Shown here piece by piece: positions 1 through 61,650 of a stretch of DNA of 64,000 nucleotides. The translations under genes were made by a program, and so were the position numbers. The stretch is taken from the NCBI GenBank assembly GCA_045612345.1, contig JAZKYV010000040.1, positions 13,749 through 77,748 on the forward strand, written 5' to 3'. Below the pieces are notes generated by a model. It was not told where the DNA came from, did no database searches, and worked only from the letters and a program-made list of their open reading frames with translations. Position 1 is the first letter of the stretch, and every line of letters begins with the position of its first letter. The stretch is from Bacteroidales bacterium. Lineage in GTDB: Bacteria; Bacteroidota; Bacteroidia; Bacteroidales; F082.

Positions 1-131
1 AATTGCTCAATAATGAAGAAGAACGTAAACGACGCATAACATCAAGCATGGAATACGTTCAAAAATATAAAGGAACAAACATTGCTAATGCCGTCATTGA
101 AGTTTATAAGAAGTTGAAAACTGAAAATTGA
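1..131 (+). CDS. 3' end of a CDS entering from upstream (C-terminal fragment, glycosyltransferase-like tail)
   Basis: The frame is open from the window edge (phase of nt 3) and reads ...NIANAVIEVYKKLKTEN*, with TGA at 129-131. The product guess rests only on a GT4-like ...EVYKKL C-terminal pattern. The last codons lie inside a heptad repeat array. Confidence 0.35.
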   Translation, partial: LLNNEEERKRRITSSMEYVQKYKGTNIANAVIEVYKKLKTEN

Positions 132-182
132 AAATTGAAAGTTAGCACGACTTCCAATTTTCCATTTTCAACTTTCAATTTT
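114..182. repeat. Inverted pair of tandem 7-bp word arrays (YTGAAAR)x4 / (TTYCAAY)x4, an imperfect hairpin
   Basis: Read directly: ttgaaaa ctgaaaa ttgaaaa ttgaaag, spacer ttagcacgac, then ttccaat tttccat tttcaac tttcaat. It overlaps the stop codon of the upstream partial CDS. Confidence 0.85.
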
Positions 183-220: not shown

Positions 221-245
221 CTTAGTGTCTTAGAGTCTTGGTGAC
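221..245. repeat. Tandem 8-bp word array (CTTRGWGW)x3, reverse complement of the GACACCRA family
   Basis: cttagtgt cttagagt cttggtga c. It ends 1 nt before the stop codon (246-248) of the minus-strand T9SS protein gene. Confidence 0.8.
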
Positions 246-8438: not shown

Positions 8439-8447
8439 ACATTAAAA

Positions 8448-8490
8448 TCTCAAAATTTTTGAGGTTCTGAGTTTCTGAATTTCTGAATCT
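8448..8490. repeat. Tandem 7-8-bp word array (TTYTGAR), reverse complement of the YTCARAA family
   Basis: tctcaaaatttttgagg ttctgag tttctgaa tttctgaa tc. It fills the gap after the LTD gene stop and encodes the last ~13 codons of the minus-strand DUF1893-like ORF. Confidence 0.8.
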
Positions 8491-8884: not shown

Positions 8885-8887
8885 GGT

Positions 8888-8947
8888 CAACAGACTACGG
8901 ACAACAGTCAACAGATTTTGTTCAGAGTTCAACGTTCAATGTTCAAC
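8888..8947. repeat. Two abutting heptad arrays: (CAGACTA/CGGACAA family) then (GTTCARN family)
   Basis: caacagactacggacaacagtcaacagat (8888-8916), then gttcagagttcaacgttcaatgttcaac (8920-8947). It lies between two co-oriented genes and contains the stop codon of ORF 8929-9432. Confidence 0.85.
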
Positions 8948-15649: not shown

Positions 15650-15735
15650 AAATTCAGAATCTCAAAATACCAAAACCCAAAAATTTTGAGATTCTGAGTT
15701 TTTGAAGTTTTGAGGTTTTGAACTTCTGAGATTTT
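15650..15735. repeat. Octad word arrays (YTCARAAN)x4 / (TTYTGARN)x6 in inverted orientation
   Basis: Perfect 15-bp inverted repeat TCAGAATCTCAAAAT (15654-15668) / ATTTTGAGATTCTGA (15683-15697) with a 14-nt loop. The right arm continues as ttttgaag ttttgagg ttttgaac ttctgaga. Confidence 0.85.
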
Positions 15736-22116: not shown

Positions 22117-22154
22117 AGACAACAGACTACGGACAACATCAACAGACATTGTCC
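22117..22154. repeat. Heptad word array of the CAGACTA/CGGACAA family
   Basis: agacaacagactacggacaacatcaacagacattgtcc. It shares a 19-bp identical core, CAACAGACTACGGACAACA (22120-22138), with 8888-8906. Confidence 0.85.
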
Positions 22155-22196: not shown

Positions 22197-22267
22197 AACT
22201 CAGAAATTCAGAACTTAAGAAACTTAAAAAAATTTGAGATTTTGATGTTTTTAAATTCTGAATTTTT
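22197..22267. repeat. Inverted octad arrays (YTCAGAAN / TTAAGAAA) and (TTTGAKRT / TCTGAATT)
   Basis: aactcagaaattcagaacttaagaaactt, then an A-run, then tttgagattttgatgtttttaaattctgaattttt. Confidence 0.8.
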
Positions 22268-24128: not shown

Positions 24129-25118
24129 ATGAATAACAAAGCAAAAATAAAAAAAATCACAGAAATAATGGTTAAAATAGTAATCGTACTATTAGGCATC
24201 TGGATTTTATACAAAAAGCTATTTCATAACCAAAACATCTCACAGCTTCTGATTGACATAGAATCATCAATCAAGACAACAAAAAACCTCATTCTTATAT
24301 TAGCAGCATTATTATTAGTTCCTCTTAATATTTATTTAGAAGGAATTAAATGGAAAATGCAACTTAAACCTATCGAAAATATAAATATCTGGAAATCATT
24401 TCTTTCAATTTTTACAGGAATAACTTCAGGAATGTTTTTTCCAAACAGAATGGGAAATTTTCTAGGAAGAATATTTATGTTGGAAAAAGGCGACAGGATA
24501 AAAGCCGCCATGGTTACAATAGTCGGAGGCATGGCACAAATGATAGCTACAGTAAGCCTCGGATTGATAGCAGCTATATTTTTTGTTAATAAAAATTTAG
24601 TGTTATTAACAATAGCAGCTGTTTTAATTATAGGAATATTATTAATAATGTATTTCAACATACATATCTTAAAATATTTTCAGTTTTTGATTCCTAAAAA
24701 ATTTAAAGAAAAGACCAAAGAATATTTTGAGGTATTTTCATTCTATAATAAAACAGAACTGTTAAAAATTTTAACAATATCATTTTTAAGATACTTTCTT
24801 TACACATTCCAATTTGTGCTTTTGATATGGTCCTTCGACGTGCCGCTGACATATTTCAAAGCAATGATACCAATTTCAGCAACATATATATTGATGATGA
24901 TAATACCATTTATCACAATAACAGAAATAGCAGTCAGAGGATCCGTAAGCATTTTAGTTTTTGAAAAATGGTTAATTATCAATAATATAAGTAGTTCATA
25001 CGGAATGATGGTATTTTCAGCAAGTTCATTATTATGGATTTTTAATATAGCGATTCCATCTATTATCGGACTGTTTTTAACATATCGATTTAAATTTTTC
25101 AGGAAAAATGAATTTTGA
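24129..25118 (+). CDS. Flippase-like membrane protein (LPG-synthase TM / UPF0104 family)
   Basis: 329 aa with about 8 TM helices. It overlaps the downstream GT2 gene by 11 nt. The true start may be the internal Met at 24168. Confidence 0.5.
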   Translation: MNNKAKIKKITEIMVKIVIVLLGIWILYKKLFHNQNISQLLIDIESSIKTTKNLILILAALLLVPLNIYLEGIKWKMQLKPIENINIWKSFLSIFTGITSGMFFPNRMGNFLGRIFMLEKGDRIKAAMVTIVGGMAQMIATVSLGLIAAIFFVNKNLVLLTIAAVLIIGILLIMYFNIHILKYFQFLIPKKFKEKTKEYFEVFSFYNKTELLKILTISFLRYFLYTFQFVLLIWSFDVPLTYFKAMIPISATYILMMIIPFITITEIAVRGSVSILVFEKWLIINNISSSYGMMVFSASSLLWIFNIAIPSIIGLFLTYRFKFFRKNEF

Positions 25119-26238
25119 ACTGCTTCAAATATTATTAAATATAGTATTGATAATAAGTGCTTTATATCTTATTTGTATAGTTGCATTTACTTACGGACTA
25201 TATAATTTAAAAGAAAGATTTTTTGCCTTCAATAAAAAAAGCGATGTTAAAGTATCAGTCCTGATTGCAGCACGCAATGAAGAAAAAAATATCGAAAGAT
25301 TATTAAAATCACTTTATAATCAATCATTTGAAAAAGAATTATTTGAAGTAATAATAATTGATGATCATTCAAATGACAACACATTTTCTATAATAGAGAA
25401 CTTCTCAAAAACATATAAAGATTTTAACTTAAAAATTTTTAAAGCTGATAATGAAGGAAAGAAACTAGCCATTTCACAGGCTTTGCATTTAGCTGAAAAT
25501 GAATTGGTTTTAGTCACAGATGCTGATTGTGTCTTAAAATCCACATGGATTGAAAGCATCGTTGATTTCTATAAAAGAGAAAACTGCAAGATGATATTAG
25601 CTCCTGTTTTATTATCTCCGGCTGAGACATTTTTCGAAAAGATTCAGGTTTTAGAGCATTTGAGTTTGATAGGCAGCACTGCTGGATCAGCAGAAATAGG
25701 TTTTCCTGTGATGTGTAACGGAGCAAATATGGCTTACGAAAGAGCTGCTGCTTTAGAATGTGAAAAATTCAGAAAAGATTTCAACATAGCATCAGGAGAC
25801 GATATGTTTTTAATGGAACAATTCTCTAAAAATTACGGTCTTAAAAACGTCAGATTCCTGTTAAGCAAATCAGCTATCGTAGAGACTAAGACATGCAAAA
25901 ACATTTCCGAATTTTTCCGTCAGAGGAGAAGATGGGTTTCAAAAACGAAATCATATACCAGCTGGAAAATAATAGCTACTGCCTTGGTGGTTTTCTTTTT
26001 CAATTTAAGCATTGTTTCGCTGTTTGTAAGCGCCTTTTTCATCCCAGCCTTGTGGAGCATCTATTTTCTGTTAACAATCCTTAAATTCTTTATAGATTAT
26101 CCTCTTTTGAAAAACATAACCTCATTCATGAATCAAGGTAGTCTTTTAAGATGGACATTGCCACTTGAATTCATATATCCGTTTTATGTTGTCATTACAG
26201 CAATCAGCGGAATGTTGGTAAACGTTAAATGGAAGTAG
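25108..26238 (+). CDS. Family 2 glycosyltransferase with C-terminal TM helices
   Basis: 376 aa with VSVLIAARNEE, IIIDDHSND, and VTDADC (DxD), plus a QRRRW-type motif (RQRRRWVSK) typical of processive GT2 enzymes. Confidence 0.75.
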   Translation: MNFELLQILLNIVLIISALYLICIVAFTYGLYNLKERFFAFNKKSDVKVSVLIAARNEEKNIERLLKSLYNQSFEKELFEVIIIDDHSNDNTFSIIENFSKTYKDFNLKIFKADNEGKKLAISQALHLAENELVLVTDADCVLKSTWIESIVDFYKRENCKMILAPVLLSPAETFFEKIQVLEHLSLIGSTAGSAEIGFPVMCNGANMAYERAAALECEKFRKDFNIASGDDMFLMEQFSKNYGLKNVRFLLSKSAIVETKTCKNISEFFRQRRRWVSKTKSYTSWKIIATALVVFFFNLSIVSLFVSAFFIPALWSIYFLLTILKFFIDYPLLKNITSFMNQGSLLRWTLPLEFIYPFYVVITAISGMLVNVKWK

Positions 26239-26242
26239 CAGT

Positions 26243-26332
26243 ATCTTGAACTCAGAACCTTGAATCTTGAACACTGAACCTATTAGTTCAAAGTTCAAAG
26301 TTCAGAGTTCAGAGCTCAAAGCTCAGAGTTCT
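26243..26332. repeat. Gene-less hairpin built from heptad arrays: (CTTGAAY/CTCAGAAC)x5, loop, (GYTCARA)x6
   Basis: cttgaac tcagaac cttgaat cttgaac actgaac c, tatta, then gttcaaa gttcaaa gttcaga gttcaga gctcaaa gctcaga gttc. It starts 5 nt after the GT2 stop codon. Confidence 0.88.
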
Positions 26333-26339
26333 TAACAAA

Positions 26340-26742
26340 ACTTACTCTATTATTCTTTTTAAATATTTTTAAAATTAAAAATTAATATGAAAAATTGAGT
26401 GAATGAGTAAATGTTGATAACTTCTTAATGAATTAAAAATCAAAAAAATAACCCTATTTTTTATTGTTGATAACTCTGTTAAAATGTGTTAACAAACAAC
26501 GATAAATATTGTTCAAAACCCACAAATGTTTATTTGTTAAAAAGTTTTTAAATAATTTTAACAAGTTTTAAAGTTATTAACAATGTAAATGTTGATAACT
26601 TTTATTGTATTGATTAGTAGTGAGATACAAATTCAACAAATATTAGATTTTTTTTTGTAAAATATTCATAATTAGTGAGAAAAATAATATTTAGTCATGG
26701 AAATATTTTTTAACTTTGTGGAAATTTATCAACAATTGTAAT
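26340..26742. other. Very AT-rich non-coding region with four exact TGTTGATAA/TTATCAACA boxes
   Basis: The boxes are at 26412-26420, 26465-26473 and 26590-26598 (TGTTGATAA), and 26726-26734 (TTATCAACA). A 17-bp string, GTAAATGTTGATAACTT, is shared by boxes 1 and 3. Further TTAACAA-type half matches occur. A nearly pure A/T stretch lies at 26345-26395. Confidence 0.6.
26711..26718 (+). promoter_or_regulatory. Bacteroidota -7 promoter motif TAnnTTTG (TAACTTTG)
   Basis: Exact match, 25 nt upstream of the rpiB ATG at 26743. Confidence 0.45.
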
Positions 26743-27180
26743 ATGAAAAGATTAATTCCTATAGCTTGCGATCATGGTGGATTTGCCATGAAGCAATATA
26801 TCATTGAAAGACTGATAGAAAACGGTTACGAAGTTAAAGATTACGGTACATTTTCAGAAGAAAGTGTAGATTATCCTGATTACATCCATCCATTGGCACA
26901 GGATATTCAAGACGGAGTTTATCCACTTGGTATCATTTTATGCGGAAGTGGCAACGGTGCACAAATGACAGCTAACAAACATCCTAATGTTAGAGCTGCT
27001 CTTTGCTGGAATGTTGAATTAGGAAAATTGGCTCGTCAGCACAATGACGCTAACATTTTAACACTTCCTGGTCGTTTCATTTCAAACGAATTAGGTTGGG
27101 AAATAGCTCAAGCTTATTTGACAACTGATTTCGAAGGCGGAAGACACGCTAATAGAGTTGCTAAAATTAACCTTAAATAA
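26743..27180 (+). CDS. rpiB: Ribose-5-phosphate isomerase B
   Basis: IACDHGGFAMK and ILCGSGNGAQMTANKH are RpiB/LacAB family motifs. The start is taken at MKRLIP. Confidence 0.9.
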   Translation: MKRLIPIACDHGGFAMKQYIIERLIENGYEVKDYGTFSEESVDYPDYIHPLAQDIQDGVYPLGIILCGSGNGAQMTANKHPNVRAALCWNVELGKLARQHNDANILTLPGRFISNELGWEIAQAYLTTDFEGGRHANRVAKINLK

Positions 27181-32710: not shown

Positions 32711-32822
32711 AAATTCAGAATTTCAAAATATCAGAAATTCAGAAAAATTTAAAACCCCTATAAGTTTAACTTATGGGGGTTCTTTATTTTGAGGTTTTGA
32801 GATTTTGAATTTCTGATATTTT
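32711..32822. repeat. Octad word arrays flanking a terminator; perfect 17-bp inverted repeat
   Basis: AAAATATCAGAAATTCA at 32725-32741 and its exact reverse complement at 32806-32822. Both arms are made of YTCARAAW / WTTYTGAR words. The terminator hairpin lies between them. Confidence 0.88.
32751..32790. terminator. Rho-independent terminator nested inside the inverted arrays
   Basis: Stem ACCCCTATAAG / CTTATGGGGGT with a T-rich tail, and an A-run on the other side. It lies between convergent genes. Confidence 0.75.
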
Positions 32823-33503: not shown

Positions 33504-35564
33504 ATGGAAAATAACGACAAACATTTCAAACGTTACACGGTAACGACAGCATTACCTTACGCTAATGGTCCAGTGCATATCGGTCACTTGGCAGGCGTAT
33601 ATATCCCAGCCGATACTTACGTTCGTTATCTACGAATGAAAGGCGAAGAGGTTTTGTTTGTCGGCGGCTCCGATGAACACGGCGTGCCTATCACTATCAA
33701 AGCTGAAAAAGAAGGCTGCACTCCACAAGATATCGTCGATAGATACCACAATATAATCAAAGATTCTTTCGAAAAACTCGGCATTAGCTACGACATCTAT
33801 TCTCGTACAAGCTCAAAGACTCACCATGAGACAGCAGCTGCTTTCTTCAAGAAACTCTACGAAGACGGCAAATTCATCGAAAGAGAATCAGAACAATTCT
33901 TTGATCCAGAACGTAACAAATTCTTGTCAGACCGTTACATCATCGGTACTTGCCCTAAATGTGGCAACGACCACGCTTACGGCGACCAATGTGAGAAATG
34001 CGGTTCTTCAATGAGTCCTGATGAACTCATCAATCCTCACTCAGCTCTCAGCGGCGCTGAACTCGTAAAGAAATCAACAAAACACTGGTATCTTCCTTTA
34101 GACCAATACGAACAATGGCTCCGCGAATGGATTATCGAAGGTCATAAAGAATGGAAACCTAATGTATACGGACAAGTAAAGAGCTGGTTGGATAACGGCT
34201 TGCAACCACGCGCTGTTACCCGCGACCTCGACTGGGGCGTTCCTGTTCCTGTTGAAGAAGCTGACGGCAAAGTGCTTTACGTTTGGTTCGATGCTCCTAT
34301 CGGCTACATCTCAAACACAATAGAACACTGCGCTGAAAAAGGCACTGACTGGAAAAAATGGTGGAAAGACGAAGATACAAAACTCGTTCACTTCATCGGT
34401 AAAGACAACATCGTTTTCCACTGCATCATATTCCCTTGCATGTTGAAAGCTTACGGTGATTATATCGTTCCAGAAAACGTTCCAGCTAACGAATTCTTGA
34501 ACCTCGAAAACGATAAGATTTCAACATCACGTAACTGGGCTGTTTGGTTACACGAATATCTCGAAGAGTTCCCTGGCAAACAAGACGTCCTTCGTTATGT
34601 TTTGACAGCTAACGCTCCTGAGACAAAAGACAATAACTTCACTTGGAAAGATTATCAAGATAGAAACAATAACGAGTTACTTGCTATCTTCGGCAACTTC
34701 GTAAATCGTACATTGGTTCTTACACATAAATATTTCGAAGGTAAGGTTCCAGCTATGATTAACCTTAATGAAAAAGATCAGGCTGCTATCGAAGAAATGA
34801 ATCAATATCCAGACAAGATCGCTAACCTACTCGATAACTATAAATTCCGTGAAGGCTTGTCAGAATTGATGAACTTGGCTCGTCTTGGTAACCGTTACCT
34901 CACAGAAAACGAACCTTGGAAACAATTCAAGACAGATCCAGAAAGAGTCAAGACAGTTCTCGCAGTTTCATTGCAAATCGTTGCTAAACTCGCTATCTTG
35001 TCAGAACCATTCTTGCCATTCTCAGCTAAGAAGTTACAATCAATGATTGGTTTGGAAGTAAGCAGCTGGAATCAAGCTAAGGAAACAATCTTATTGAACG
35101 AAAACGCTACTATCGGCGAAGTCGAATTGTTATTCACAAAAGTCGAAGACGAGACAGTGGCAGCTCAAGTCAATAAGTTGGAAGAGACAAAGAAACAAAA
35201 TGAACTCAACGCATGGGCTCCAAATCCAATCAAACCTAACACCAACATCGATGAATTTGGTAAGATGGATATCAGAGTCGGTACTGTTTTAGAATGCGTT
35301 AAAGTTCCAAAAGCAGATAAGTTATTACAATTCTTGATCGACGACGGTATGAACAAACGTACTATCGTTTCAGGAATCGCTAAATATTATCCAAATCCTG
35401 AAGAATTAGTTGGCAAGCAAGTATGCTTCATCGCTAACTTCGAGCCTCGTAAATTGAAAGGCATCGTCAGCGAAGGCATGATTTTGTCAGCTGAAGACAA
35501 AGACGGAAGATTGGTTGTTATGTCACCAAGTCAACCTGTTGCTCCAGGAAGCAGTGTTGGATAA
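33504..35564 (+). CDS. metG: Methionine--tRNA ligase (with C-terminal tRNA-binding/EMAP domain)
   Basis: 686 aa with HIGH ([14 protein letters not shown]), a Zn knuckle ([18 protein letters not shown]), KMSKS-equivalent KISTSRN, and a C-terminal DIRVGTV...[10 protein letters not shown] domain. Confidence 0.95.
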
Positions 35565-35588
35565 AAAGACACCAAGTCTCTGTGACTT
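35565..35588. repeat. Short array of the GACACCRA family filling the whole metG/yraN convergent spacer
   Basis: aaagacaccaagtctctgtgactt. The first 13 nt (AAAAGACACCAAG, counting the last A of the metG stop) also occur downstream of radA at 49781-49793. Confidence 0.6.
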
Positions 35589-35955
35589 ATTTAAGAGAAG
35601 GATAGAATGCATCTTCAATGTGTTCTATCCTTTTTTCATTATTTCTGTCGATGACGATTGCGATGATGTCGAATCTTACATCGTTGTCGTATTGATAGCG
35701 ATTGACGTATGAATTTGCAGCCCAGATGAGATGTCGTTGTTTATAGACATCGACAGTCGCTTCAGGTTCGACGAGGCAGGTGCTGTGTCGCGTTTTCACT
35801 TCTACGAAGACGATGGTGTTACCGTCTTTTGCGATGATGTCGACTTCTTTGTGGCCGCATGACCAATTCTTTTCTAAGATCTGATAATTACGCTCCAGAA
35901 GATACTCCAAAGCGATTTGTTCGCCTAAGGCGCCAATTTCATTGTGTTTTGCCAT
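35587..35955 (-). CDS. yraN: YraN-family (UPF0102) endonuclease-like protein
   Basis: 122 aa with GEQIALEYL, EVDIIA, IVFVEVKTR, a PD-(D/E)xK-like core. Confidence 0.8.
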   Translation of the reverse strand: MAKHNEIGALGEQIALEYLLERNYQILEKNWSCGHKEVDIIAKDGNTIVFVEVKTRHSTCLVEPEATVDVYKQRHLIWAANSYVNRYQYDNDVRFDIIAIVIDRNNEKRIEHIEDAFYPSLK

Positions 35956-35975
35956 AATTTTTTTGGTTTAAGGTT
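35952..35975. repeat. 24-bp perfect direct repeat, copy 1 (CCATAATTTTTTTGGTTTAAGGTT)
   Basis: Covers the yraN start codon and leader. An identical copy lies at 36370-36393. Confidence 0.9.
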
Positions 35976-35982
35976 TAATAAA

Positions 35983-36012
35983 AGACTACAGACTATGGAC
36001 TACAGACTACGG
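35983..36012. repeat. Heptad array (AGACTAY/GGACTAC)x4
   Basis: agactac agactat ggactac agactac gg. It is inverted relative to 36416-36443, with a 12-bp perfect complementary core (GGACTACAGACT). Confidence 0.88.
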
Positions 36013-36022
36013 TTAGAGTGTT

Positions 36023-36373
36023 TTAATTATTTTTTAGAAATTCTCTTAACTTATAGATTTGTTTGGATATAACTGACAATTTTGATTGTAGTTCTTGTCG
36101 TTTTTCTGTACTGCAATAATTTAAATCTTCACAAAGGTAAAGCATACTTTTGACTTCTGCGCAACTTCCATAAGATATGTTGAGATAACGAATGTAAGTT
36201 TTATCAGAACCACTTTCTGAACCTTCAGCAATGTTGTTCATAATAGACAAAGAAGCTCTTTGTATTTGATCACGGAAACCATAATCATTACAAGTATACA
36301 TTACTTCATAAATGGCTTTGACAAATAATCTAGAGTCTTGCCATACTCTTAAATTTTCAAGATTTCTTTCCAT
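36023..36373 (-). CDS. Four-helix-bundle protein, 23S rRNA-intervening-sequence / DGR-Avd family (copy 1)
   Basis: 116 aa with the family signature DQIQRASLSIMNNIAEGSESGS...YL.IS.GS..E. Confidence 0.85.
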   Translation of the reverse strand: MERNLENLRVWQDSRLFVKAIYEVMYTCNDYGFRDQIQRASLSIMNNIAEGSESGSDKTYIRYLNISYGSCAEVKSMLYLCEDLNYCSTEKRQELQSKLSVISKQIYKLREFLKNN

Positions 36374-36393
36374 AATTTTTTTGGTTTAAGGTT
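36370..36393. repeat. 24-bp perfect direct repeat, copy 2
   Basis: Covers the four-helix-bundle ORF start codon and leader, 418 bp from copy 1. Confidence 0.9.
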
Positions 36394-36408
36394 ATTATTA
36401 TGATTGAT

Positions 36409-39357: not shown

Positions 39358-39365
39358 TTTTGTAG

Positions 39366-39405
39366 AATCTCAGAAATTCAAAAATTCAAAACCTCAGAAT
39401 TTCGG
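39366..39405. repeat. Solo octad array (YTCARAAW)x4
   Basis: aatctcagaa attcaaaa attcaaaa cctcagaa tttcgg. It begins 9 nt after the S46 peptidase stop. Confidence 0.8.
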
Positions 39406-39465
39406 TATAATTGCCAAAAATGGTTGGTGAAATTCTTGTAAAACAATGTATATCAATTTAATTAA

Positions 39466-40686: not shown

Positions 40687-40732
40687 AATTATGAATTATG
40701 CATTAAGCATTATGAATTATCTAATGATTATC
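40687..40732. repeat. Heptad array (ATTATGM/ATTAAGC)x5-6 overlapping a stop codon
   Basis: aattatg aattatg cattaag cattatg aattatc taatgat tatc. It contains the stop (40717-40719) and the last codons of the PNGase F paralog. Confidence 0.75.
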
Positions 40733-49782: not shown

Positions 49783-49810
49783 AAGACACCAAGACACCGA
49801 GACACCGAGA
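49783..49810. repeat. Octad array (GACACCRA)x3
   Basis: aagacacc aagacacc gagacacc gaga, starting 1 nt after the radA stop. It is inverted relative to 50222-50256, with a 13-bp perfect complementary core (CCAAGACACCGAG). Confidence 0.88.
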
Positions 49811-49840
49811 TTTATATTTATTAACTAAAAGTCAAAAATT

Positions 49841-50200
49841 ATGAAGCGCACAATAGAAAATTTATACATTTGGCAAGAGTCAAGAAGCGTAGTAAATGAT
49901 ATCTACACATTGATGAAAGATTGTAGAGATTTTGGTTTTAAGGACCAAATTCAAAGAGCATCTATAAGTATTATGAATAATATTGCAGAAGGAACAGAAT
50001 CAGGATCTGATGCGAAGTATATAAACTTTCTGAATATTTCAAGAGGCAGTTGCTCCGAAGTGCATTCAATGTTATACCTATGTGAAGATTTTAAAATATG
50101 TTCACAGGAAGAAAGAATTAAGATTCAGAATAAAATAAAACTATTGTCAATAGGGATAGTAAACTTAATCAATTATATTTCAAATAACAAGAAGCATTAA
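49841..50200 (+). CDS. Four-helix-bundle protein, 23S rRNA-IVS / DGR-Avd family (copy 2)
   Basis: 119 aa with DQIQRASISIMNNIAEGTESGS...FLNISRGSCSEV. It is roughly 55-60 percent identical by eye to copy 1. Confidence 0.85.
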   Translation: MKRTIENLYIWQESRSVVNDIYTLMKDCRDFGFKDQIQRASISIMNNIAEGTESGSDAKYINFLNISRGSCSEVHSMLYLCEDFKICSQEERIKIQNKIKLLSIGIVNLINYISNNKKH

Positions 50201-50215
50201 TCAGGTTACTTAAAC

Positions 50216-51142
50216 TCAATTCTCGGTGTCTTGGAGTCTAAGTGACTTGGTGACTCTAAAAAACCATACTACCAAAAACGACATTCCCCATCGTGAAAGC
50301 AGCATCCAGAGGTATGCTCCGCCGGCTGCAGTGAACAATAAAAGATCTTCTAAGTTGCTGTGTGATATCCCTATATGCATATTTAGAAGGTCGTTTTCTT
50401 CTTTGGTGGTTTCGCCTTTTTCTGCTTCTTCTATCATAATGCCTGCGCCGTAAGCCAGTCCCAAGGTGTTGGATACTAACCATAAGAAAGCGCATTTCGG
50501 TGATAGACCGAAAAATATCATCACTGGCTTTAAGAATCTTGAGATGTATTGTATTATGCCGAACTCGGTTAATATCTTTTGTAACAATGTCAAGAGATAT
50601 ACCAACAAGGCCATCGTGAGTATGTTCTTCGTTGTTCTGAAAGCCCATTGCTTTAACATCACTGCAAATGTCAGATTGTCTTGTATGGAACTTTCAATGG
50701 CTTGGTTTTCAAAGCCTCCAGGCATGATTTTGTTTAAGACCCATCCTAATATGAATGCTGATAATGTTCTTACTATAACAATCTTGATTACAGAAGAACC
50801 TGTCTTATGCTGAACGGCTGTCTCTACGATCATATTATGCGAACAAAGCACCATGACGGATAATATCGTCGCGGCTCTTGTGCTGAGTTCTAATGTCGTC
50901 ATCACGGCGATGGCGGAATAGCAGTTGACGAAATATCCTGATACATAAGCGAGCGCTGCTTCACCAGGAAGTCCGAAGTGTGAGAAGATAGGAGTGAGCC
51001 AATATGAAATCCATTCTATGATTCCGAAATATTGTAATAATAATATCACAAATGATAGAGAGACCATTATCTTGGTCAGCCACCAGATGGTTTTTAATGC
51101 GCTCGGTCTGGCGCTTTTGATGCAATTTGTAAATCGTGACAT
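50216..51142 (-). CDS. Nucleoside-recognition (Gate) domain-like polytopic membrane protein
   Basis: 308 aa with about 8 TM helices. The family call is tentative. The last ~12 codons (VTKSLRLQDTEN) are encoded by the octad array. Confidence 0.45.
   Translation of the reverse strand: MSRFTNCIKSARPSALKTIWWLTKIMVSLSFVILLLQYFGIIEWISYWLTPIFSHFGLPGEAALAYVSGYFVNCYSAIAVMTTLELSTRAATILSVMVLCSHNMIVETAVQHKTGSSVIKIVIVRTLSAFILGWVLNKIMPGGFENQAIESSIQDNLTFAVMLKQWAFRTTKNILTMALLVYLLTLLQKILTEFGIIQYISRFLKPVMIFFGLSPKCAFLWLVSNTLGLAYGAGIMIEEAEKGETTKEENDLLNMHIGISHSNLEDLLLFTAAGGAYLWMLLSRWGMSFLVVWFFRVTKSLRLQDTEN
50222..50256. repeat. Octad array (CTYGGWGW)x4, reverse complement of GACACCRA
   Basis: ctcggtgt cttggagt ctaagtga cttggtga ctc. 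Confidence 0.88.
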
Positions 51143-51787: not shown

Positions 51788-51795
51788 GTCTCATA

Positions 51796-51841
51796 TTTTT
51801 AATTAGCAAACATAATGATTTTTAATTAGCAAACATAATGA
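51796..51841. repeat. Perfect 23-bp tandem duplication (TTTTTAATTAGCAAACATAATGA x2)
   Basis: Copies at 51796-51818 and 51819-51841. On the minus strand each carries TATGTTTG (51807-51814 and 51830-51837), a TAnnTTTG -7 motif upstream of the gene starting at 51787. Confidence 0.9.
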
Positions 51842-54375: not shown

Positions 54376-54410
54376 AGACTTTGAACCTTGACTTTGAACC
54401 TTGAACTTTT
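54376..54410. repeat. Heptad array (CTTTGAA/CCTTGAM)x5
   Basis: agactttgaaccttgactttgaaccttgaactttt, starting 3 nt after the topA stop. It is inverted relative to 54827-54892. Confidence 0.85.
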
Positions 54411-54413
54411 AAT

Positions 54414-54446
54414 AATACCTCGGGATTTTCCGGGGTATTTTTTATA
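54414..54446 (+). terminator. Rho-independent terminator
   Basis: Stem ATACCTCGG / CCGGGGTAT (one mismatch) followed by T6. Confidence 0.7.
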
Positions 54447-54475: not shown

Positions 54476-54826
54476 ATGAGAAATTTTAGAGAATATGACA
54501 TTTGGAAAGATTCGATGATCATTACCAAAGATGTTTATTTATATACAAAAGAGTTTCCAAAACAAGATGCCATTATAAATCAAATGCAAAGGGCTGCAAT
54601 TTCTATCCCGTCTAATATTGCAGAAGGTTCATCGAGAAAGTCTTCTGTTGAATTTGCTAGATATATAGAAATAGCATTGGGTTCAGCATACGAGTTAGAG
54701 ACACAAATAGAATTGTCTTTTCTTCTTCATTACATAAATAATGATATTTATAAAAAATTAATATCAAATGTTTGTAGTGTTGAAAAACGAATGTCAAAAT
54801 TTATATCAACATTAAGAGAAAAATAG
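54476..54826 (+). CDS. Four-helix-bundle protein, 23S rRNA-IVS / DGR-Avd family (copy 3, divergent)
   Basis: 116 aa with NQMQRAAISIPSNIAEGSSR...YIEIALGSAYELETQ. Confidence 0.8.
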   Translation: MRNFREYDIWKDSMIITKDVYLYTKEFPKQDAIINQMQRAAISIPSNIAEGSSRKSSVEFARYIEIALGSAYELETQIELSFLLHYINNDIYKKLISNVCSVEKRMSKFISTLREK

Positions 54827-54892
54827 CTCAAAGTTCAGAGCTCAAAGTTCAAAGCTTAAAGTTCAGAGCTCAAAGTTCAAAGTTCAGAGTCC
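54827..54892. repeat. Heptad array (GYTCARA/GCTTAAA)x9
   Basis: ctcaaa gttcaga gctcaaa gttcaaa gcttaaa gttcaga gctcaaa gttcaaa gttcaga gtcc. It fills exactly the gap between the 4HB stop (54826) and the polA stop (54893). Confidence 0.9.
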
Positions 54893-57583
54893 TTAGTGCG
54901 CTTCCAGCCAATTGGTTCCTGTGTTGAGATTAACTTCAATAGGAACATTGAGTGGGAGCGCATTTGTCATTTTATCTTTGACGAGTTCGCTCAATATATC
55001 GAGTTCTTCTTTATGGACGTCGAAGACCAATTCGTCGTGTACCTGTAATATCATCTTGGATTTCAGATCTCTTGCTTTCATCTCGTTGTAGATGTTGGTC
55101 ATCGCTATTTTTATCATATCGGCTGAGCTGCCTTGTATTGGCGCATTGATGGCGTTTCTCTCTGCGAAGTTCCTTACTACGCTGTTGCCGGAGTTGATGT
55201 CGCGGAGATAACGACGGCGTCCTAACATAGTTTCAACATATCCGTATTGTTTCGCGAAATCGACTTGCTTGTCGATATATTCTTGAATGCCGATATATTC
55301 TTTGAAATAATTCTTTATTATCTCTGAGGCCTCGCTTCTTGATATCTTTAATCTTTCTGCCAATCCGAATGCCGACATTCCGTAAATGATGCCGAAGTTG
55401 ACAGCTTTGGCGTTGCGACGCATTTCGCTGGTGACGTCTTTTATGTCAACGCCATAGACGCGAGCTGCTGTGTCAGCGTGAATGTCAAGCCCCTCACGGA
55501 AGGCAGACTGCATGGCTTGGTCGCCGCTGAGATGAGCGATGATTCTTAACTCAATCTGCGAATAATCCGCTGCGAGCAGTATGTGGTTTTCGTCACGTGG
55601 AACGAAGGCCTTTCTGATCTCACGGCCTTTGTCGGTACGAACCGGTATGTTCTGGAGGTTAGGGTTGTTGGAACTCAATCGACCTGTGGCTGTAACGGCC
55701 TGGTTGAATGAAGTGTGAATGAGACCATCGTAAGGGCTTACCAATGAAGGCAAGGCATCGACATAAGTCGATTTGAGTTTTGTCAGAGAACGATAGTCGA
55801 GAATATGTTGTACTATAGGGTTTTCGTTTATGATCTTTTGGAGGACATCTTCGCCTGTAGGATACTGGCCTGTCTTTGTTTTCTTGGCAGGCGCCTTTAT
55901 CTGCAGCTTGTCAAAAAGAATCTCGCCCAATTGTTTTGGTGATCCAATGTTGAAAGTCGTGCCAGCGATTTCATAGATGCTGTTTTCTATATCAGCAATC
56001 TCTTTGGCTTGTTCCTCGCTGATCTGTTTCAGTCCGTTGATGTCTATCTTGACGCCGTTGGATTCCATCTTGGCAAGGACTCTTACCAATGGCATCTCGA
56101 TGTCGTGGAAAAGGCTTTCTAAATCATTTTCAGATAATAAGTCCTTGAACTTATCGTAAAGCTGCCATCTGATGTCGGTATTGTCTGTGGCGTAAATGTC
56201 GTTGAGATAATCGAGACTATGATTCAATTCCGGCTCAATGAGATAGTGAGCTATCATGCAGTCCCATAACTTATTGTTGATCTCAAAACCATATTTTGCA
56301 AGAATTGAGATGTCGGTCTTGATGTTATGGCCTATTATCGTTTTCTCATTGTCGTTGAAGATGCAAGAGAATTTTGTTAATAAGTCTTTGCATTTCTCGT
56401 CATCGACAGGAAGTTCTATCTTGTAAATGTCGTTAGGGTTGACGGCAAAAGTCATTTCTCTTGTCTCGATATGGAAAGAGAATTCATTGCAGCTCTTGAG
56501 ATTGTCAATAAGTTCATTGATTTGAGAATCATCTTTAACGATGATGAACTCACGAGTTTTAACAATGTTGGTAGCAGGTTCTTCATCGAAGCCGCCGAAA
56601 AGATCAAGCTGGCTGTTGGCTGCTGGCTGTTGGGTATTAGCCATCGGCTTTTGGCTTTTAGCTACTGGTTGTTGGTTATTGGTTGAAGTCTGTTGTCTGT
56701 TGTCTGTTGTCCGTTGACTCTTAAACCTCGCAAGGAATGTTCTGAATTCCAGTTCTTCGAATAATTCGGTGAGGCGATCCATATCAGGGTCTTTGACTTT
56801 CAGCTGTTCTTCATCGAAATCGACAGGTACGTTGGTGTCTATTGTCGCGAGTTTTTTAGACATAAGACCTTGTTGTGCGAAGTTGATGACGTTCTCTCGC
56901 ATTTTGCCTTTTAGTTTATCGGCATTTGCGATGAGGTTTTCAACGGAGTCGAATTCAGCTATGAGTTTGGAAGCGTTTTTCTCCCCGATGCCAGGGATGC
57001 CAGGGATGTTATCGGAAGCGTCGCCCCATAGTCCGAGTATGTCGATGACTTGTTCAGGGCGGGCAATGCTGTATCTCTCGCATACTTCTGCAGGTCCGAG
57101 GACTTTTGCAGGCTCGCCGCCTTTTGCAGGTTTATAGATGAATATGTTTTCACTTACGAGCTGCCCGAAGTCTTTGTCGGGAGTCATCATAAATGTGGTG
57201 AAGCCTTCTTTTTCAGCTTTCTTGGATAGCGTTCCTATTATGTCATCGGCTTCATAGCCTTCGCGTTCGAAGATAGGAATGTTAAAAGCTTTTATGATTT
57301 CCTTTATGTAAGGGACAGAAGCCTTGATGTCAGGAGGTGTCTCTTCTCGGTTGGCCTTATAAGCGGAGAAGTCGTCGGTGCGGAGGGTAGGAGCGCCGAG
57401 GTCGAAGGCAATGCCTATATGGGTGGGTTTTTCGTTTTTAAGCACTTCATATAAAGTGTTCAGAAAACCCATAATGGCAGAAGTGTTCAAGCCTTTTGAG
57501 TTGATTCTTGGGTTTTTATTTAAAGCAAAATAGGCCCTATATATAAGTGCGTAAGCGTCGAGAAAGAATACCTTTTTCATCAT
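54893..57583 (-). CDS. polA: DNA polymerase I
   Basis: 896 aa with a 5' nuclease domain (FLDAYALIYRAYF, GIPGIGEKNA), a 3'-5' exo-like domain, and pol motifs (LLAADYSQIELR, RRNAKAVNFGIIYG, QVHDELVFD). It contains an in-frame repeat-derived linker. Confidence 0.95.
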   Translation of the reverse strand: MMKKVFFLDAYALIYRAYFALNKNPRINSKGLNTSAIMGFLNTLYEVLKNEKPTHIGIAFDLGAPTLRTDDFSAYKANREETPPDIKASVPYIKEIIKAFNIPIFEREGYEADDIIGTLSKKAEKEGFTTFMMTPDKDFGQLVSENIFIYKPAKGGEPAKVLGPAEVCERYSIARPEQVIDILGLWGDASDNIPGIPGIGEKNASKLIAEFDSVENLIANADKLKGKMRENVINFAQQGLMSKKLATIDTNVPVDFDEEQLKVKDPDMDRLTELFEELEFRTFLARFKSQRTTDNRQQTSTNNQQPVAKSQKPMANTQQPAANSQLDLFGGFDEEPATNIVKTREFIIVKDDSQINELIDNLKSCNEFSFHIETREMTFAVNPNDIYKIELPVDDEKCKDLLTKFSCIFNDNEKTIIGHNIKTDISILAKYGFEINNKLWDCMIAHYLIEPELNHSLDYLNDIYATDNTDIRWQLYDKFKDLLSENDLESLFHDIEMPLVRVLAKMESNGVKIDINGLKQISEEQAKEIADIENSIYEIAGTTFNIGSPKQLGEILFDKLQIKAPAKKTKTGQYPTGEDVLQKIINENPIVQHILDYRSLTKLKSTYVDALPSLVSPYDGLIHTSFNQAVTATGRLSSNNPNLQNIPVRTDKGREIRKAFVPRDENHILLAADYSQIELRIIAHLSGDQAMQSAFREGLDIHADTAARVYGVDIKDVTSEMRRNAKAVNFGIIYGMSAFGLAERLKISRSEASEIIKNYFKEYIGIQEYIDKQVDFAKQYGYVETMLGRRRYLRDINSGNSVVRNFAERNAINAPIQGSSADMIKIAMTNIYNEMKARDLKSKMILQVHDELVFDVHKEELDILSELVKDKMTNALPLNVPIEVNLNTGTNWLEAH
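56609..56720. repeat. Intragenic heptad array, 16 units (112 bp), inside polA
   Basis: ctggctg ttggctg ctggctg ttgggta ttagcca tcggctt ttggctt ttagcta ctggttg ttggtta ttggttg aagtctg ttgtctg ttgtctg ttgtccg ttgactc. On the coding strand this gives the 7-aa-periodic QRTTDNR QQTSTNN QQPVAKS QKPMANT QQPAANS. Confidence 0.88.
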
Positions 57584-60485: not shown

Positions 60486-60520
60486 AAAACGTCACATTCT
60501 GAGAAAGTGACGTTTTTTTT
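60484..60520. terminator. Bidirectional rho-independent terminator
   Basis: AAAAAACGTCAC, loop, GTGACGTTTTTTTT, between convergent genes. Confidence 0.8.
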
Positions 60521-60523
60521 GTT

Positions 60524-60557
60524 CAATGGCCAACGGCCAATAGCCTTTAGCCAATTA
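60524..60557. repeat. Heptad array (CAAYRGC)x4-5 overlapping the pheS stop
   Basis: caatggc caacggc caatagc ctttagc caatta. The stop codon (60555-60557) lies in the last unit. Confidence 0.8.
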
Positions 60558-61581: not shown

Positions 61582-61650
61582 AGTCAACAGACAACGGACA
61601 ACGGACAACACTCAAAAGTCATTGTCAATTGTTAATTGTCAATTGTTAAT
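61582..61650. repeat. Heptad arrays (RGACAAC)x4 then (GTYAATT)x4, partly self-complementary
   Basis: agtcaac agacaac ggacaac ggacaac actcaaa agtcatt gtcaatt gttaatt gtcaatt gttaat. It fills the pheS-start / PPIase-stop spacer. Confidence 0.85.

Follow-up and report, generated by a model that had tools for sequence, protein, structure and literature searches.

The hairpin at positions 26,243–26,332 of a 64,000-nucleotide (64-kb) stretch of gut Bacteroidales DNA, hereafter the window, is probably an ORF-less member of a class of IVS-like inverted repeats built from tandem short words and akin to the STRR of cyanobacteria; we hold this reading with slightly better than even confidence. The full-length form of the class would be a cassette in which a PF05635 four-helix-bundle gene is enclosed by two inverted arrays of 7–9-nt words. 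In architecture it would match the S23p-containing intervening sequences (IVS) found in 23S rRNA, with the difference that it follows immediately on the stop codons of ordinary genes.

The focal hairpin starts 4 nt after the TAG of a GT2 gene (25108–26238). Its earlier description, made from the sequence alone, matches what we found, namely five plus six heptads around a 5-nt loop, with no ORF:

26243..26280, + strand: 5' arm, five CTTGAAC-type heptads, in order ATCTTGAAC, TCAGAAC, CTTGAAT, CTTGAAC, ACTGAAC and a final C (sequence; MFE stem)
26281..26285, + strand: apical loop TATTA (sequence; MFE fold)
26286..26332, + strand: 3' arm, 6.7 GYTCARA heptads, in order GTTCAAA, GTTCAAA, GTTCAGA, GTTCAGA, GCTCAAA, GCTCAGA and GTTCT (TRF period 7, score 59; fold z about −5)

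The fold had a z of −5.07 on the + strand and −5.04 on the − strand, and none of 200 shuffles folded as well. Both strands were equally stable, so that the fold shows no strand preference. An exact look-up of the GT2 protein beside the hairpin returned no match, and those of acpP and rpiB gave matches.

Could the hairpins serve as intrinsic (bidirectional) transcription terminators, one of the roles proposed for them in the sequence-only reading? They lie past stop codons, often between convergent genes, and in some cases their stems are strong. However, the GC-rich stem followed by a U-tract that marks an intrinsic terminator is lacking in the focal hairpin, which is directly followed on its 3' side by TTAACAAAAC, and a scan of 25900–26800 found no terminator-like match. 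Furthermore, the stems are rich in A and T, each word contains a mismatch, and canonical GC-rich terminators with a T-run stand beside or inside several arrays (at ~190–218, within 32711–32822, at 54417–54443 and at ~60486–60520). With no U-tract in the focal hairpin and separate canonical terminators near the arrays, the terminator role was not borne out, and we regard it as highly improbable.

With TRF, the window yielded 26 distinct arrays with a period of 7 or 8; when its dinucleotides were shuffled block-wise 30 times, the mean number was 4.6 and the maximum 8. Of the 26 arrays, 17 had period 7 and 9 had period 8, against 1.9 and 2.8 in the shuffles. The TRF arrays with a score of at least 30 overlapped 17 of the 21 intervals that had been picked out by the sequence-only reading, and the other four (22117–22154, 35565–35588, 50222–50256 and 60524–60557) are weak and visible by eye. 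With rotation and strand ignored, 22 word pairs lay at a distance of at most 1, compared with 7.8 expected (maximum 15) over 300 randomisations. The word families in the window are TTGAAAA, AAATTCAG, GACAACA/GACTAC, AAGACACC and GTTCAAA. The word-sharing test thus upholds the proposal of a dispersed family of gene-end repeat structures made from a few word families, and the shuffle controls for array count and for shared words place the arrays beyond low complexity. No known RNA families, tRNAs or rRNA were found in the window. The arrays outside cassettes are as follows:

114..182, unstranded: ORF-less hairpin of TTGAAAA/TTTTCAA words (fold z −6.8; alignment)
221..245, unstranded: one-armed array of CTTAGAGT, of the AAGACACC family, adjoining the stop codon of gene 246–2792(−) (TRF)
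8448..8490, unstranded: one-armed octad array over the 3' end of a DUF1893 gene (TRF; fold)
8888..8947, unstranded: two neighbouring arrays, CAACAGA and GTTCAAC, with no significant hairpin (TRF; z −1.5)
15650..15735, unstranded: ORF-less hairpin of AAATTCAG/ATTTTGAG octads in the divergent promoter region upstream of recJ (z −6.4)
22117..22154, unstranded: GACAACA/GACTACG words 10 nt upstream of the rlmH start codon (sequence context)
22197..22267, unstranded: hairpin without an ORF, built of octad-family words and lying in a divergent region (z −3.1)
32711..32822, unstranded: octad arms around a canonical GC-rich terminator stem (z −8.2)
35565..35588, unstranded: one-word remnant at the metG/yraN site (comparison with L100)
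39366..39405, unstranded: one-armed octad array past the stop codon of a peptidase S46 gene (TRF; fold)
40687..40732, unstranded: AATTATG array over the 3' end of gene 40717–43266(−) (TRF)
56609..56720, − strand: in-frame heptad arrays forming the polA interdomain linker (TRF; hypervariable among strains)
60524..60557, unstranded: CAATGGC-type array with a terminator on one side and the pheS stop codon on the other (strain comparison)
61582..61650, unstranded: weak hairpin with a GACAACG arm and an ATTGTCA/ATTGTTA arm (z −2.8)

The arrays had been described as hairpins, and this held for about six sets, which fold clearly beyond shuffles (114–182, 15650–15735, 22197–22267, 26243–26332, 32711–32822 and 61582–61650; z −2.8 to −8.2). 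The remaining sets are one-armed, with z of about −1 to −1.5 at 8445–8493, 8885–8950, 35562–35591, 39362–39408 and 60520–60560. Similarly, it had been claimed that almost every array stands at a stop codon; about 16 of 20 do, whereas three lie in divergent 5'/5' regions (15650–15735, 22117–22154 and 22197–22267) and one lies inside polA. Arrays were present in 8 of 10 convergent intergenic regions, one of which is spanned from stop codon to stop codon by the element at 32711–32822, and in 8 of 17 co-directional and 2 of 10 divergent ones. The one-armed arrays, the in-frame polA arrays and the promoter-region arrays indicate that a hairpin is not a requirement for the existence of an array.

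Could the arrays then be neutral or selfish minisatellites, that is, slippage repeats of 7–8 nt that occur wherever they are tolerated, with hairpins arising accidentally from palindromic seeds and no tie to PF05635? Among the long simple repeats of prokaryotes, heptamers occur most often (Mrazek 2007, as cited in PMC4679880). One-armed arrays do occur, other arrays run in frame through the polA linker and the C-terminal codons of several genes, near-identical strains differ in copy number by whole words, and there is neither a strand preference nor a G-U signature, all of which fits such repeats. The points that speak against this reading come from the PF05635 loci and the strain comparison described below.

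The arrays had also been likened to REP/BIME-type elements, which would be moved in trans by a RAYT (IS200/IS605-like TnpA) encoded elsewhere. REP/BIME elements are marked by a conserved imperfect palindrome of ~20–40 nt, near-identical repeats, a 5' GTAG-type motif and a cognate RAYT. The hairpins here resemble them in being dispersed, multi-copy, extragenic palindromes biased to gene 3' ends and possible stabilisers of mRNA 3' ends, and GTAG occurs within some words. However, they share no common palindromic unit; they consist of tandem 7–8-nt words of variable number, the word families are mutually unrelated, and the changes between strains are step-wise and in situ, with whole words changed in place. 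Pfam scans of the ORFs and the gene tables agree with the earlier observation that the window holds no transposase or RAYT, and none was found in ~40 kb of additional syntenic DNA of relatives. Kinship with REP/BIME was not borne out, there being no conserved palindromic unit and no RAYT in the window or in that syntenic DNA, and we consider such an origin extremely improbable.

Three array pairs in the window are inverted arms around PF05635/TIGR02436 genes (S23p/Avd-like), an arrangement that the sequence-only reading had overlooked. The bracketing pairs are 49783–49810/50222–50256, 54376–54410/54827–54892 and 36416–36443/35983–36012, and the cassettes are made up as follows:

49783..49810, + strand: cassette 1 left arm of AAGACACC words, beginning at the base after the radA stop codon (z 7.9)
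49841..50200, + strand: cassette 1 gene, PF05635/TIGR02436 (profile matches)
50222..50256, + strand: cassette 1 right arm, in which the words are of the GGTGTCTT type and run over the 3' end of Gate-domain gene 50216–51142(−)
54376..54410, + strand: cassette 2 left arm, adjoining the topA stop codon (arm alignment z 9.1)
54417..54443, + strand: canonical terminator-like stem-loop with T-run, between the cassette 2 left arm and gene (read from the sequence)
54476..54826, + strand: cassette 2 gene, PF05635/TIGR02436 four-helix bundle (Pfam 1.8e-30; TIGR02436; PDB 2GSC 3.5e-19)
54827..54892, + strand: cassette 2 right arm of nine GTTCAAA/GCTCAGA words, filling the whole gap up to the polA stop codon
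36416..36443, − strand: cassette 3 upstream arm of GGACTAC/GGACTTC words, encoding the final residues of the SIS-domain gene 36409–37002(−) (z 6.1)
36023..36373, − strand: cassette 3 gene, PF05635/TIGR02436 (TIGR02436)
35983..36012, − strand: cassette 3 downstream arm of GTAGTCT words in gene sense, just upstream of the yraN start codon

When the flanks of 49 genes were compared for inverted complementarity, the three PF05635 genes ranked first to third (z 9.1, 7.9 and 6.1). The TIGR02436 scores of the cassette genes were 98–104 bits against a cut-off of 24, and the PF05635 scores of cassettes 1 and 2 were 101.8 and 105.8 bits against a cut-off of 33.8; the assignment of cassette 3 is based on TIGR02436 together with precomputed Pfam hits to its L091 and L098 orthologues. 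All three cassettes show two features of an S23p-type IVS, a PF05635 ORF and enclosing inverted repeats, and the focal hairpin, which is ORF-less, has the TTGAAC/GTTCAA word family in common with the arms of cassette 2. PADLOC found no defence-system match for the PF05635 genes, and no near-identical cassette copies were found in the genome sequence examined. The window also carries rnc, the gene for RNase III, at 59299–60030.

To see the same arrangement on a larger scale, we turn to 77 PF05635 loci from many phyla, obtained by a scan of a genome collection. Arrays of period 6–10 occurred at 7.66 per kb within 100 nt of the PF05635 ORF, compared with 0.5–0.8 per kb farther out, an enrichment of ~12-fold; periods of 7 (58 arrays), 8 (48) and 9 (18) were found. 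The arrays flanked the gene on both sides at 43 loci, on one side at 23 and on neither at 11. Local alignment of one flank with the reverse complement of the other gave inverted-complementary flanks above every shuffle at 62 of the 77 loci, and z exceeded 5 at 51; the pattern held both in Bacteroidota (22 of 32 with z > 5) and in other phyla (30 of 45). This alignment replaced the RNA duplex energy of the 150-nt flanks, a test that was dropped with overlapping ranges (−65 kcal/mol versus −48 kcal/mol when shuffled). Some IMG/VR viral contigs (L101, L102, L111, L112 and L114) show the same cassette pattern.

The arms typically contain 3–6 words of 7–9 nt. The words vary from locus to locus, yet those upstream of the gene and those downstream are reverse complements of each other. 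In 30 of the 51 strong cassettes, the stop codon of a same-strand ORF lies upstream, at most 15 nt from the outer edge of the left arm. On the sense strand of the gene, the 5' arm is purine-rich at 45 of 57 loci (p = 2e-6), a bias that indicates a strand-specific constraint. Arm mismatches in the 51 cassettes showed no sense-strand excess of G-U (54 sense, 78 antisense and 169 transversions). This result and the focal fold, which forms on both strands, give no sign of selection on the stem at the RNA level. None of the 20 PF05635 loci tested lies in rRNA. Co-orientation with neighbouring genes was set aside as evidence, its value (60 of 75 upstream; 80–83%) being near the usual bacterial baseline.

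These loci weigh against the minisatellite reading, in that arrays at most 100 nt from PF05635 are ~12-fold denser than those at the other gene ends of the same loci in many phyla, that the arms remain complementary despite the word differences between loci and alleles, and that they are asymmetric in purines relative to the gene. In addition, entire hairpins are found again at unrelated loci. We consequently rate neutral or selfish slippage as a somewhat unlikely explanation of the set.

Alternatively, the words might be candidate periodic protein sites, one for each subunit of a PF05635 ring or for some other word-specific factor, which would regulate translation, processing or packaging. 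PF05635 homologues are pentameric four-helix-bundle rings (2GSC match; PMC4990558), the usual arm has 3–6 words, and work on Nostoc has postulated a factor that binds heptamers (bioRxiv 10.1101/2022.06.06.494920). Word families are also specific to a genome and common to cassette arms and solo arrays: arrays elsewhere in a locus shared cassette-arm words in 19% of comparisons, versus 3.4% across loci. On the other hand, the words are not conserved with the protein, since cassette-2-like proteins of Flavobacteriia are flanked by CAATCCAA words and not by TTGAAC; these related proteins with other words also led us to reject a universal protein-to-word code. Enrichment of k-mers across loci gave weak cores such as AGTC, TCAA and AAGT. 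At a single site, moreover, arms can be as short as 2 words or as long as 16, and we think the periodic-site reading distinctly unlikely.

Comparison of sister strains bore out the presence/absence and copy-number polymorphism that had been proposed for close strains. A given site may be without an element or may carry a stem of one word, a hairpin of several words or a complete cassette, and arm length differs between strains in whole words. The focal site is empty in L092, where a degenerate apex is kept, and holds arrays of different sizes in nine other contigs. Alleles of cassette 1 are 72–97% identical among sister strains, compared with 98–99.9% for the flanking proteins. In the two radA/Gate alleles that are 72% identical, the words of both arms have changed in parallel (AAGACACC/GGTGTCTT versus GAGTCAAT/ATTGACTC). 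The radA/Gate cassette is absent in L082, whose neighbouring proteins are 98.9% (radA), 96.5% (topA) and 90.6% (fabF) identical to those of the window, and the site is also empty in L089. The topA/polA cassette is present in the window, L086 and L090, with right arms of 9, ~10 and ~16 words; the same site holds a one-word hairpin with identical flanks in L084 and a TTGAAAA hairpin in L081 and L085. Cassette 3 is present in L091 and L098 and absent in L092, L093 and L100. At the metG/yraN site, L100 has a 4+4-word AAGWCACC hairpin, of which the window keeps one word. A TGAGC-family hairpin replaces the element at 61582–61650 in L084, and the array at 60524–60557 has 0, 2 or 4 words among sister strains. 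A 24-nt leader repeat precedes PF05635 and yraN, also in strains without the cassette.

Entire hairpins turn up again at loci that are otherwise unrelated. The hairpin at 114–182 is 85% identical over 65 nt to that of L085 at the topA/polA site, where L081 likewise carries such a hairpin; however, no convincing target-site duplication, which together with terminal inverted repeats and near-identical copies marks a MITE, was seen when filled and empty junctions were compared.

Could the gene-end hairpins have come first and served as landing pads, with PF05635 genes entering their loops and the focal hairpin being an unoccupied target? The unoccupied topA/polA site of L084 has a one-word stem between identical flanks, and the degenerate apex at the L092 focal site can be read in the same way. 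Left arms start at or inside the last codons of the upstream gene, cassette 2 and the element at 32711–32822 each enclose a terminator stem, and rRNA helices 25 and 45 likewise carry IVSs at their tips. On the other hand, PF05635 is found downstream of radA even in the distant Ignavibacteriaceae (L025), an adjacency that suggests that the empty radA/Gate sites of L082 and L089 are losses. The frameshifted cassette genes of L083 and L087 are decaying in place, and we know of no insertion mechanism or enzyme for PF05635. Prior landing pads are thus, in our judgement, unlikely.

We return to the reading of the focal hairpin as an ORF-less, IVS-like element and its relation to known systems. ORF-less IVS exist (Salmonella-type), and the ORF-less hairpins here parallel them. 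The cassettes resemble the 23S rRNA IVS of Leptospira and Coxiella (PMC4990558) in having a PF05635-family ORF within terminal inverted repeats that form a long stem, in their sporadic distribution, in suspected horizontal transfer and in the absence of a transposase. In the Coxiella IVS, the S23p ORF is accompanied by a terminal inverted repeat of 28 bp, which RNase III cuts (PMC4990558). In contrast, the elements here lie past the stop codons of protein genes and not in helices 25 or 45, and their arms consist of short words in tandem, the number of which varies. Avd of diversity-generating systems (DGR; PMC10053308) is related to PF05635 in fold and family and is a pentameric nucleic-acid-binding barrel. 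However, no reverse transcriptase or template/variable repeat pair lies beside the PF05635 genes here, and tandem-word arms are not a DGR feature.

The earlier notion that the arrays are built unlike anything known does not stand, because tandem heptamer arrays, some of them hairpin-forming, are already known as cyanobacterial STRR, with the canonical words CCCCAGT, TTGGTCA and CAACAGT. STRR on both arms can extend a stem, as in helix P12 of RNase P RNA. To our knowledge, they are restricted to heterocystous cyanobacteria, in which the heptamer arrays were reportedly described by Mazel in 1990 and by Vioque in 1997 (the latter title cited in PMC2858038). STRR and the arrays here are alike in their tandem 7-nt words, in the few families per genome, in their mostly intergenic location near gene starts or ends and in their variable copy number, and the window indeed contains multi-copy head-to-tail arrays of 7-nt (also 8-nt) words from a few reused families. 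One of these, ATTTTGAR/TTGAAAA, resembles the TTTTGAA repeats of Nostoc (bioRxiv 10.1101/2022.06.06.494920). The host, however, is a gut Bacteroidales and not a heterocystous cyanobacterium, as its T9SS and SusC/D genes and its closest contigs, which are Bacteroidales MAGs, show; a cyanobacterial origin was rejected, as there are no HIP1 (GCGATCGC) sites. Furthermore, only CAACAGA/CAACAGT-like words overlap the canonical STRR set, octamers are as common here as heptamers, and many arrays form inverted arms. Heptamer repeats have been reported in some Bacteroidetes (PMC4679880), and long simple sequence repeats of heptamers in prokaryotes more generally (Mrazek 2007 and MacGregor 2015, as cited in PMC4679880). 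Our search of the open-access literature for PF05635, TIGR02436, S23p, STRR and heptamers returned no description of tandem-word arms around PF05635 genes.

How might such elements arise and persist? We infer that a short palindrome at the end of a gene is the core from which the arms originate, and that they would lengthen or shorten through replication slippage in word-sized steps. The ORF-less hairpins would then be cassettes that have lost their former cargo, or arms that were never loaded. Once the upstream gene has been transcribed, the arms could pair in its RNA into a long imperfect stem that would mark and protect the 3' end of the host mRNA. In a cassette, the stem would also delimit the PF05635 mRNA and would plausibly be cut by RNase III. 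The hairpins would accordingly have a role in RNA processing or stabilisation. Among the roles suggested earlier, that of an RNase III substrate gains some indirect support, as the arms bracket PF05635 in the way that the IVS repeats bracket the S23p ORF.

A broader generalisation, which we offer tentatively as possible rather than probable, is that the tandem-word hairpins, the PF05635 cassettes, the rRNA IVS (both S23p-containing and ORF-less) and STRR are a single element found across phyla. Such an element would consist of a PF05635 gene or its remnant within self-renewing, word-built inverted arms and would lodge at the tips of stem-loops in transcribed DNA. Hosts would tolerate it, since the arms would enable its removal from the RNA by processing, and the reader of the periodic words may be the pentameric PF05635 ring.

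The arrays alter the C-termini of proteins and a linker in polA, they are probably a cause of breaks in assemblies, and they may be mistaken for CRISPR-like repeats; for gut Bacteroidales, they are very fast strain markers. The origin of bacterial rRNA IVS and of the S23p ORF has been a puzzle since about 1990 (PMC4990558), and so has the generation and maintenance of the heptamer arrays of cyanobacteria, Beggiatoaceae and some Bacteroidetes (PMC4679880). Our data tie the two puzzles together, with PF05635 in word-built arms, ORF-less hairpins in the same genome and natural strain variation that displays every intermediate state. The shared architecture of the arms may thus link the hairpins at gene ends to the intervening sequences of rRNA.

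The hairpin at 26243-26332 starts 4 nt after the TAG stop codon of a family-2 glycosyltransferase (GT2) gene (25108-26238), and marks the left edge of an AT-rich spacer, 504 nt long, that precedes rpiB. Its words, loop and arms can be read in the sequence much as the sequence-only reading had described them:

5' arm, from 26243: ATCTTGAAC TCAGAAC CTTGAAT CTTGAAC ACTGAAC C
Loop: TATTA
3' arm, to 26332: GTTCAAA GTTCAAA GTTCAGA GTTCAGA GCTCAAA GCTCAGA GTTCT

The predicted RNA fold had an energy of -32.9 kcal/mol on the + strand (z against shuffles, -5.07) and -37.6 kcal/mol on the - strand (z -5.04), with 0 of 200 shuffles as good in either case. The sequence and the z scores of about -5 on both strands therefore indicate that the object is real and has no strand preference. 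The proposal that it acts as a terminator was not borne out, as the hairpin has no U-tract and a consensus scan revealed no terminator-like site there. The spacer that it opens also holds five copies of a DnaA-box-like motif, TGTTGATAAC, within 320 nt (26400-26740; exact at 26412, 26465 and 26590, one mismatch at 26573(-) and 26725(-)), which are kept in sister strains. The cumulative GC skew reaches its minimum at ~20-24 kb, and gene orientation shifts from mostly - to mostly + near this spacer, which may be the replication origin.

Across the window, TRF detected 26 separate arrays with a 7- or 8-nt period, compared with a mean of 4.6 and a maximum of 8 in block-wise dinucleotide shuffles; other periods were not enriched to the same degree. 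These arrays overlapped 17 of the 21 intervals recognized by eye, the other four being short or degenerate yet visible. When consensus words were compared regardless of rotation and strand, 22 pairs between loci lay at a distance of ≤1 versus 7.8 expected (maximum 15 in 300 randomisations), which confirms that a few word families are reused; by eye, these are TTGAAAA, AAATTCAG/ATTTTGAG, GACAACA/GACTACG/AGACTAC, AAGACACC and GTTCAAA. The equation of arrays with hairpins held for about six sets (114-182, 15650-15735, 22197-22267, 26243-26332, 32711-32822 and 61582-61650; z -2.8 to -8.2) and failed for five further sets tested by folding, which are one-armed (z about -1). Similarly, arrays occupied 8/10 convergent, 8/17 co-directional and 2/10 divergent intergenic regions; therefore, the proposed bias towards gene ends is genuine without being absolute. 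The divergent intergenic region at 51795-51841 holds a perfect tandem duplication of 23 nt (ATTTTTAATTAGCAAACATAATG x2), which bears no relation to the 7/8-nt families. Words of the GTCTGTT/GTTGTCC/GTAGTCT type at 8888-8915, 22117-22154, 35983-36012 and 61582-61610 are always in sense orientation, 4-30 nt upstream of start codons (8884, 22107, 35955 and 61568), as they are before yraN in the sister contig L092, and may reflect an orientation rule or a leader role.

Arrays also extend into coding sequence. The block at 56609-56720 lies in frame in polA (54893-57583, - strand), departing from the stop-codon rule, and its 7-nt words, three of which give seven residues, form the linker between the 5'-3' and 3'-5' exonuclease domains. 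The linker varies by strain in sequence and length (DNA polymerase I, 881-903 aa), and that of sister contig L084 contains GTTCAAAG-type words. Array words also supply the last codons of genes for SIS-domain (36409-36443), Gate-domain (50216-50256), DUF1893 (8450-8490) and N-glycanase-like T9SS (40717-40732) proteins, which therefore have strain-specific C-terminal tails; the SIS-domain C-terminus indeed varies between strains.

To which known class do these arrays belong? Short tandemly repeated repetitive (STRR) elements are heptamer arrays of heterocystous cyanobacteria, reportedly described by Vioque in 1997 in a paper whose title PMC2858038 cites. The window arrays are like them in build and working, and they resemble the Nostoc TTTTGAA repeats. 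They are also similar to the heptamer repeats that PMC4679880 describes for Beggiatoaceae, cyanobacteria and five Bacteroidetes. Membership of the REP/BIME or terminator classes was rejected, and the earlier REP/BIME analogy fell with it, because defining features were absent; MITE membership is unlikely, as filled and empty junctions compared between strains showed no target-site duplication. As had been noted, the 64-kb window encodes no transposase or RAYT gene. We conclude that the hairpin family is a variant of known STRR-like arrays. The host is a gut or rumen Bacteroidales; T9SS sorting domains and SusC/D genes are present, and the contigs nearest to the window are Bacteroidales MAGs and animal-gut metagenomes.

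Furthermore, we observed that three small genes, overlooked in the sequence-only reading, are each enclosed by two of the arrays in inverted orientation. They belong to PF05635/TIGR02436, the '23S rRNA intervening-sequence protein' (S23p, an Avd-like four-helix bundle; PDB relatives 2GSC and 2RLD), and each forms a cassette with its arms:

49841-50200 (+), cassette 1 gene; arms 49783-49810 (AAGACACC words) and 50222-50256 (GGTGTCTT-type words)
54476-54826 (+), cassette 2 gene; arms 54376-54410 (GACTTTGAACC words) and 54827-54892 (GTTCAAAG/GCTCAGAG words)
36023-36373 (-), cassette 3 gene; arms 36416-36443 (GGACTAC words) and 35983-36012 (GTAGTCT words)

When all 49 window genes were ranked by how far their 120-nt flanks are inverted-complementary, the genes of cassette 2 (z 9.1), cassette 1 (z 7.9) and cassette 3 (z 6.1) took the top three places, and the cassette 2 arms share a word family with the focal hairpin. 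The PF05635 gene of cassette 3 and yraN have one 24-nt leader in common (AACCTTAAACCAAAAAAATTATGG, read in the gene's sense; 36374-36397 and 35956-35979, respectively), and cassette-less strains have a single copy, before yraN. Either a duplicated junction or a shared translation leader could explain it.

Using an alignment of the three proteins as the query and one genome per species, we collected 80 PF05635 loci, 77 of them usable, from Bacteroidota, Marinimicrobia, Patescibacteria, Ignavibacteria, Nitrospirota, Chloroflexota, Desulfobacterota, Gammaproteobacteria and others. At the 77 loci, the density of period 6-10 arrays was 7.66 per kb up to 100 nt from the ORF compared with 0.5-0.8 per kb at 100-2600 nt, with periods of 7 (58 arrays), 8 (48) and 9 (18). 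Arrays were found on both sides in 43 loci, on one side in 23 and on neither in 11. In 62/77 loci, the upstream flank aligned with the reverse-complemented downstream flank more closely than in any shuffle (z > 5 in 51), and the pattern was equally strong within Bacteroidota and beyond. The word is locus-specific, yet upstream and downstream words are reverse complements of each other, as in these pairs:

ACAAGACC/TCTTGTGG
AGTCAAA/GACTTTA
GGCGGAAG/CCTTCCGC
AAAGAAA/TTCTTTA

In 30 of the 51 strong cassettes, an upstream ORF on the same strand had its stop codon ≤15 nt from the outer edge of the left arm. Words were common to cassette arms and other arrays in 19% of same-locus comparisons versus 3.4% across loci. 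Several IMG/VR viral contigs have the same arrangement, one of which (L111) carries GTAGTCT words like cassette 3. None of the 20 loci tested had an rRNA gene context. We found no paper in the open-access literature tying PF05635 genes to tandem-word arms; in a CRISPR survey, only a figure legend names '23S rRNA IVP' as one of the domains associated with CRISPR modules.

Exact-protein look-ups with acpP and rpiB yielded 20 syntenic sister contigs with neighbouring proteins 85-99.9% identical to those of the window; contigs at 98-99.9% were taken as the same species. Between radA and the Gate-domain gene, most contigs carry a cassette, which is absent in L082 (junction GTTTTAA-AGACTC-TAAAAAACC) and L089. 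Cassette genes can decay in place: in two independent contigs, L083 (2862-3268) and L087 (2856-3262), the gene is frameshifted into ORFs of 62 + 72 aa while the tandem-word arms are still present. Within one species, the cassette has two alleles with 72% protein identity, at 98-99.9% identity for radA, topA and fabF, and the words have shifted in parallel on both arms (AAGACACC/GGTGTCTT versus GAGTCAAT/ATTGACTC). Thus, inverted arms remain complementary as words change. Word number is 4, 5 or 8 by strain, and in the second allele and in L088, the last codons and stop codon of radA are the first array word. PF05635 lies directly downstream of radA in the window (48415-50200), in L008, in L010 and in an Ignavibacteriaceae genome (L025). 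Its recurrence in Bacteroidales and Ignavibacteriaceae speaks for a linkage that is old, or for a preferred site; because L010 and L025 share it, this gene order suggests that the linkage is old and that the empty sites are losses.

Sites interconvert among empty, one-word stem, multi-word hairpin and cassette forms. Between topA and polA, a cassette is found in the window, L086 and L090, and its right arm counts 9, about 10 and about 16 words, respectively. In L084, a one-word hairpin (GACTTTGAAC-TTTGA-GTTCAAAGGTC) takes its place, the flanks being identical; an ORF-less hairpin of TTGAAAA words occupies the site in L081 and L085, and other contigs have unrelated genes and no arrays. The focal site has no array in L092, just a degenerate apex-like 25 nt; six contigs have long arrays of drifting words (CTGACAC, CAGAACT, CTGATAG, CTGAAAG) that run into a TTTTCAA arm at the end, no two alike in copy number, and three have arrays in complementary orientation only. 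Between the SIS gene and yraN, a cassette is found in the window, L091 and L098, and different hairpins in L092, L093 and L100. At metG/yraN, window 35565-35588 is the one-word form of a 4+4-word hairpin in L100, and the pheS 3' end has 0, 2 or 4 words by strain. Arrays are hypervariable in whole-word steps, and the presence/absence polymorphism suggested as a check was found. Dispersal, too, went beyond what the window could reveal: the L085 hairpin at topA/polA, an unrelated locus, matches the window hairpin at 117-180 with 85% identity over 65 nt, and a TGAGC-family hairpin is seen in L084 and L093 at two distinct sites. Cassette arms and ORF-less hairpins draw on the same word families. 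Some sister strains (L091 and L093, 1890-4322; L099, 275-1438) carry a DNA methylase and an NgoFVII-like restriction enzyme between the SIS-domain and peptidase S46 genes, an insertion missing from the window.

We propose that the arms begin at gene ends as short palindromic cores, often over the last codons, and lengthen as 7-8-nt units slip during replication. The paired arms would form a long imperfect stem in the upstream gene's transcript, and in cassettes this stem would surround the entire PF05635 message. The focal hairpin would be an ORF-less form of the same element, either a decayed cassette or bare arms, and any role it has would be that of a 3'-end stem for the GT2 transcript.

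Could the arrays function through RNA only? Several facts count against this: the focal hairpin folds equally on both strands, arm mismatches show no sense-strand G-U excess (54 vs 78, with 169 transversions), and one-armed and in-frame arrays occur. On the other hand, in 45/57 loci the sense strand of the gene has a purine-rich 5' arm (p = 2e-6; GC skew +0.37), which shows that orientation relative to transcription matters, although the purine-rich coding end that seeds the arm could just have passed this asymmetry on.

S23p-containing intervening sequences (IVS) of 23S rRNA have 28-bp terminal repeats at which RNase III cuts (PMC4990558). Cassettes are like them in ORF family and terminal inverted repeats but differ in location, and a stem around the PF05635 message would have the IVS geometry. 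Through this parallel, the earlier idea that the arrays may be RNase III substrates survives; this genome encodes RNase III at 59299-60030. The link between PF05635 cassettes and tandem-word arms across phyla is the part that deserves follow-up.
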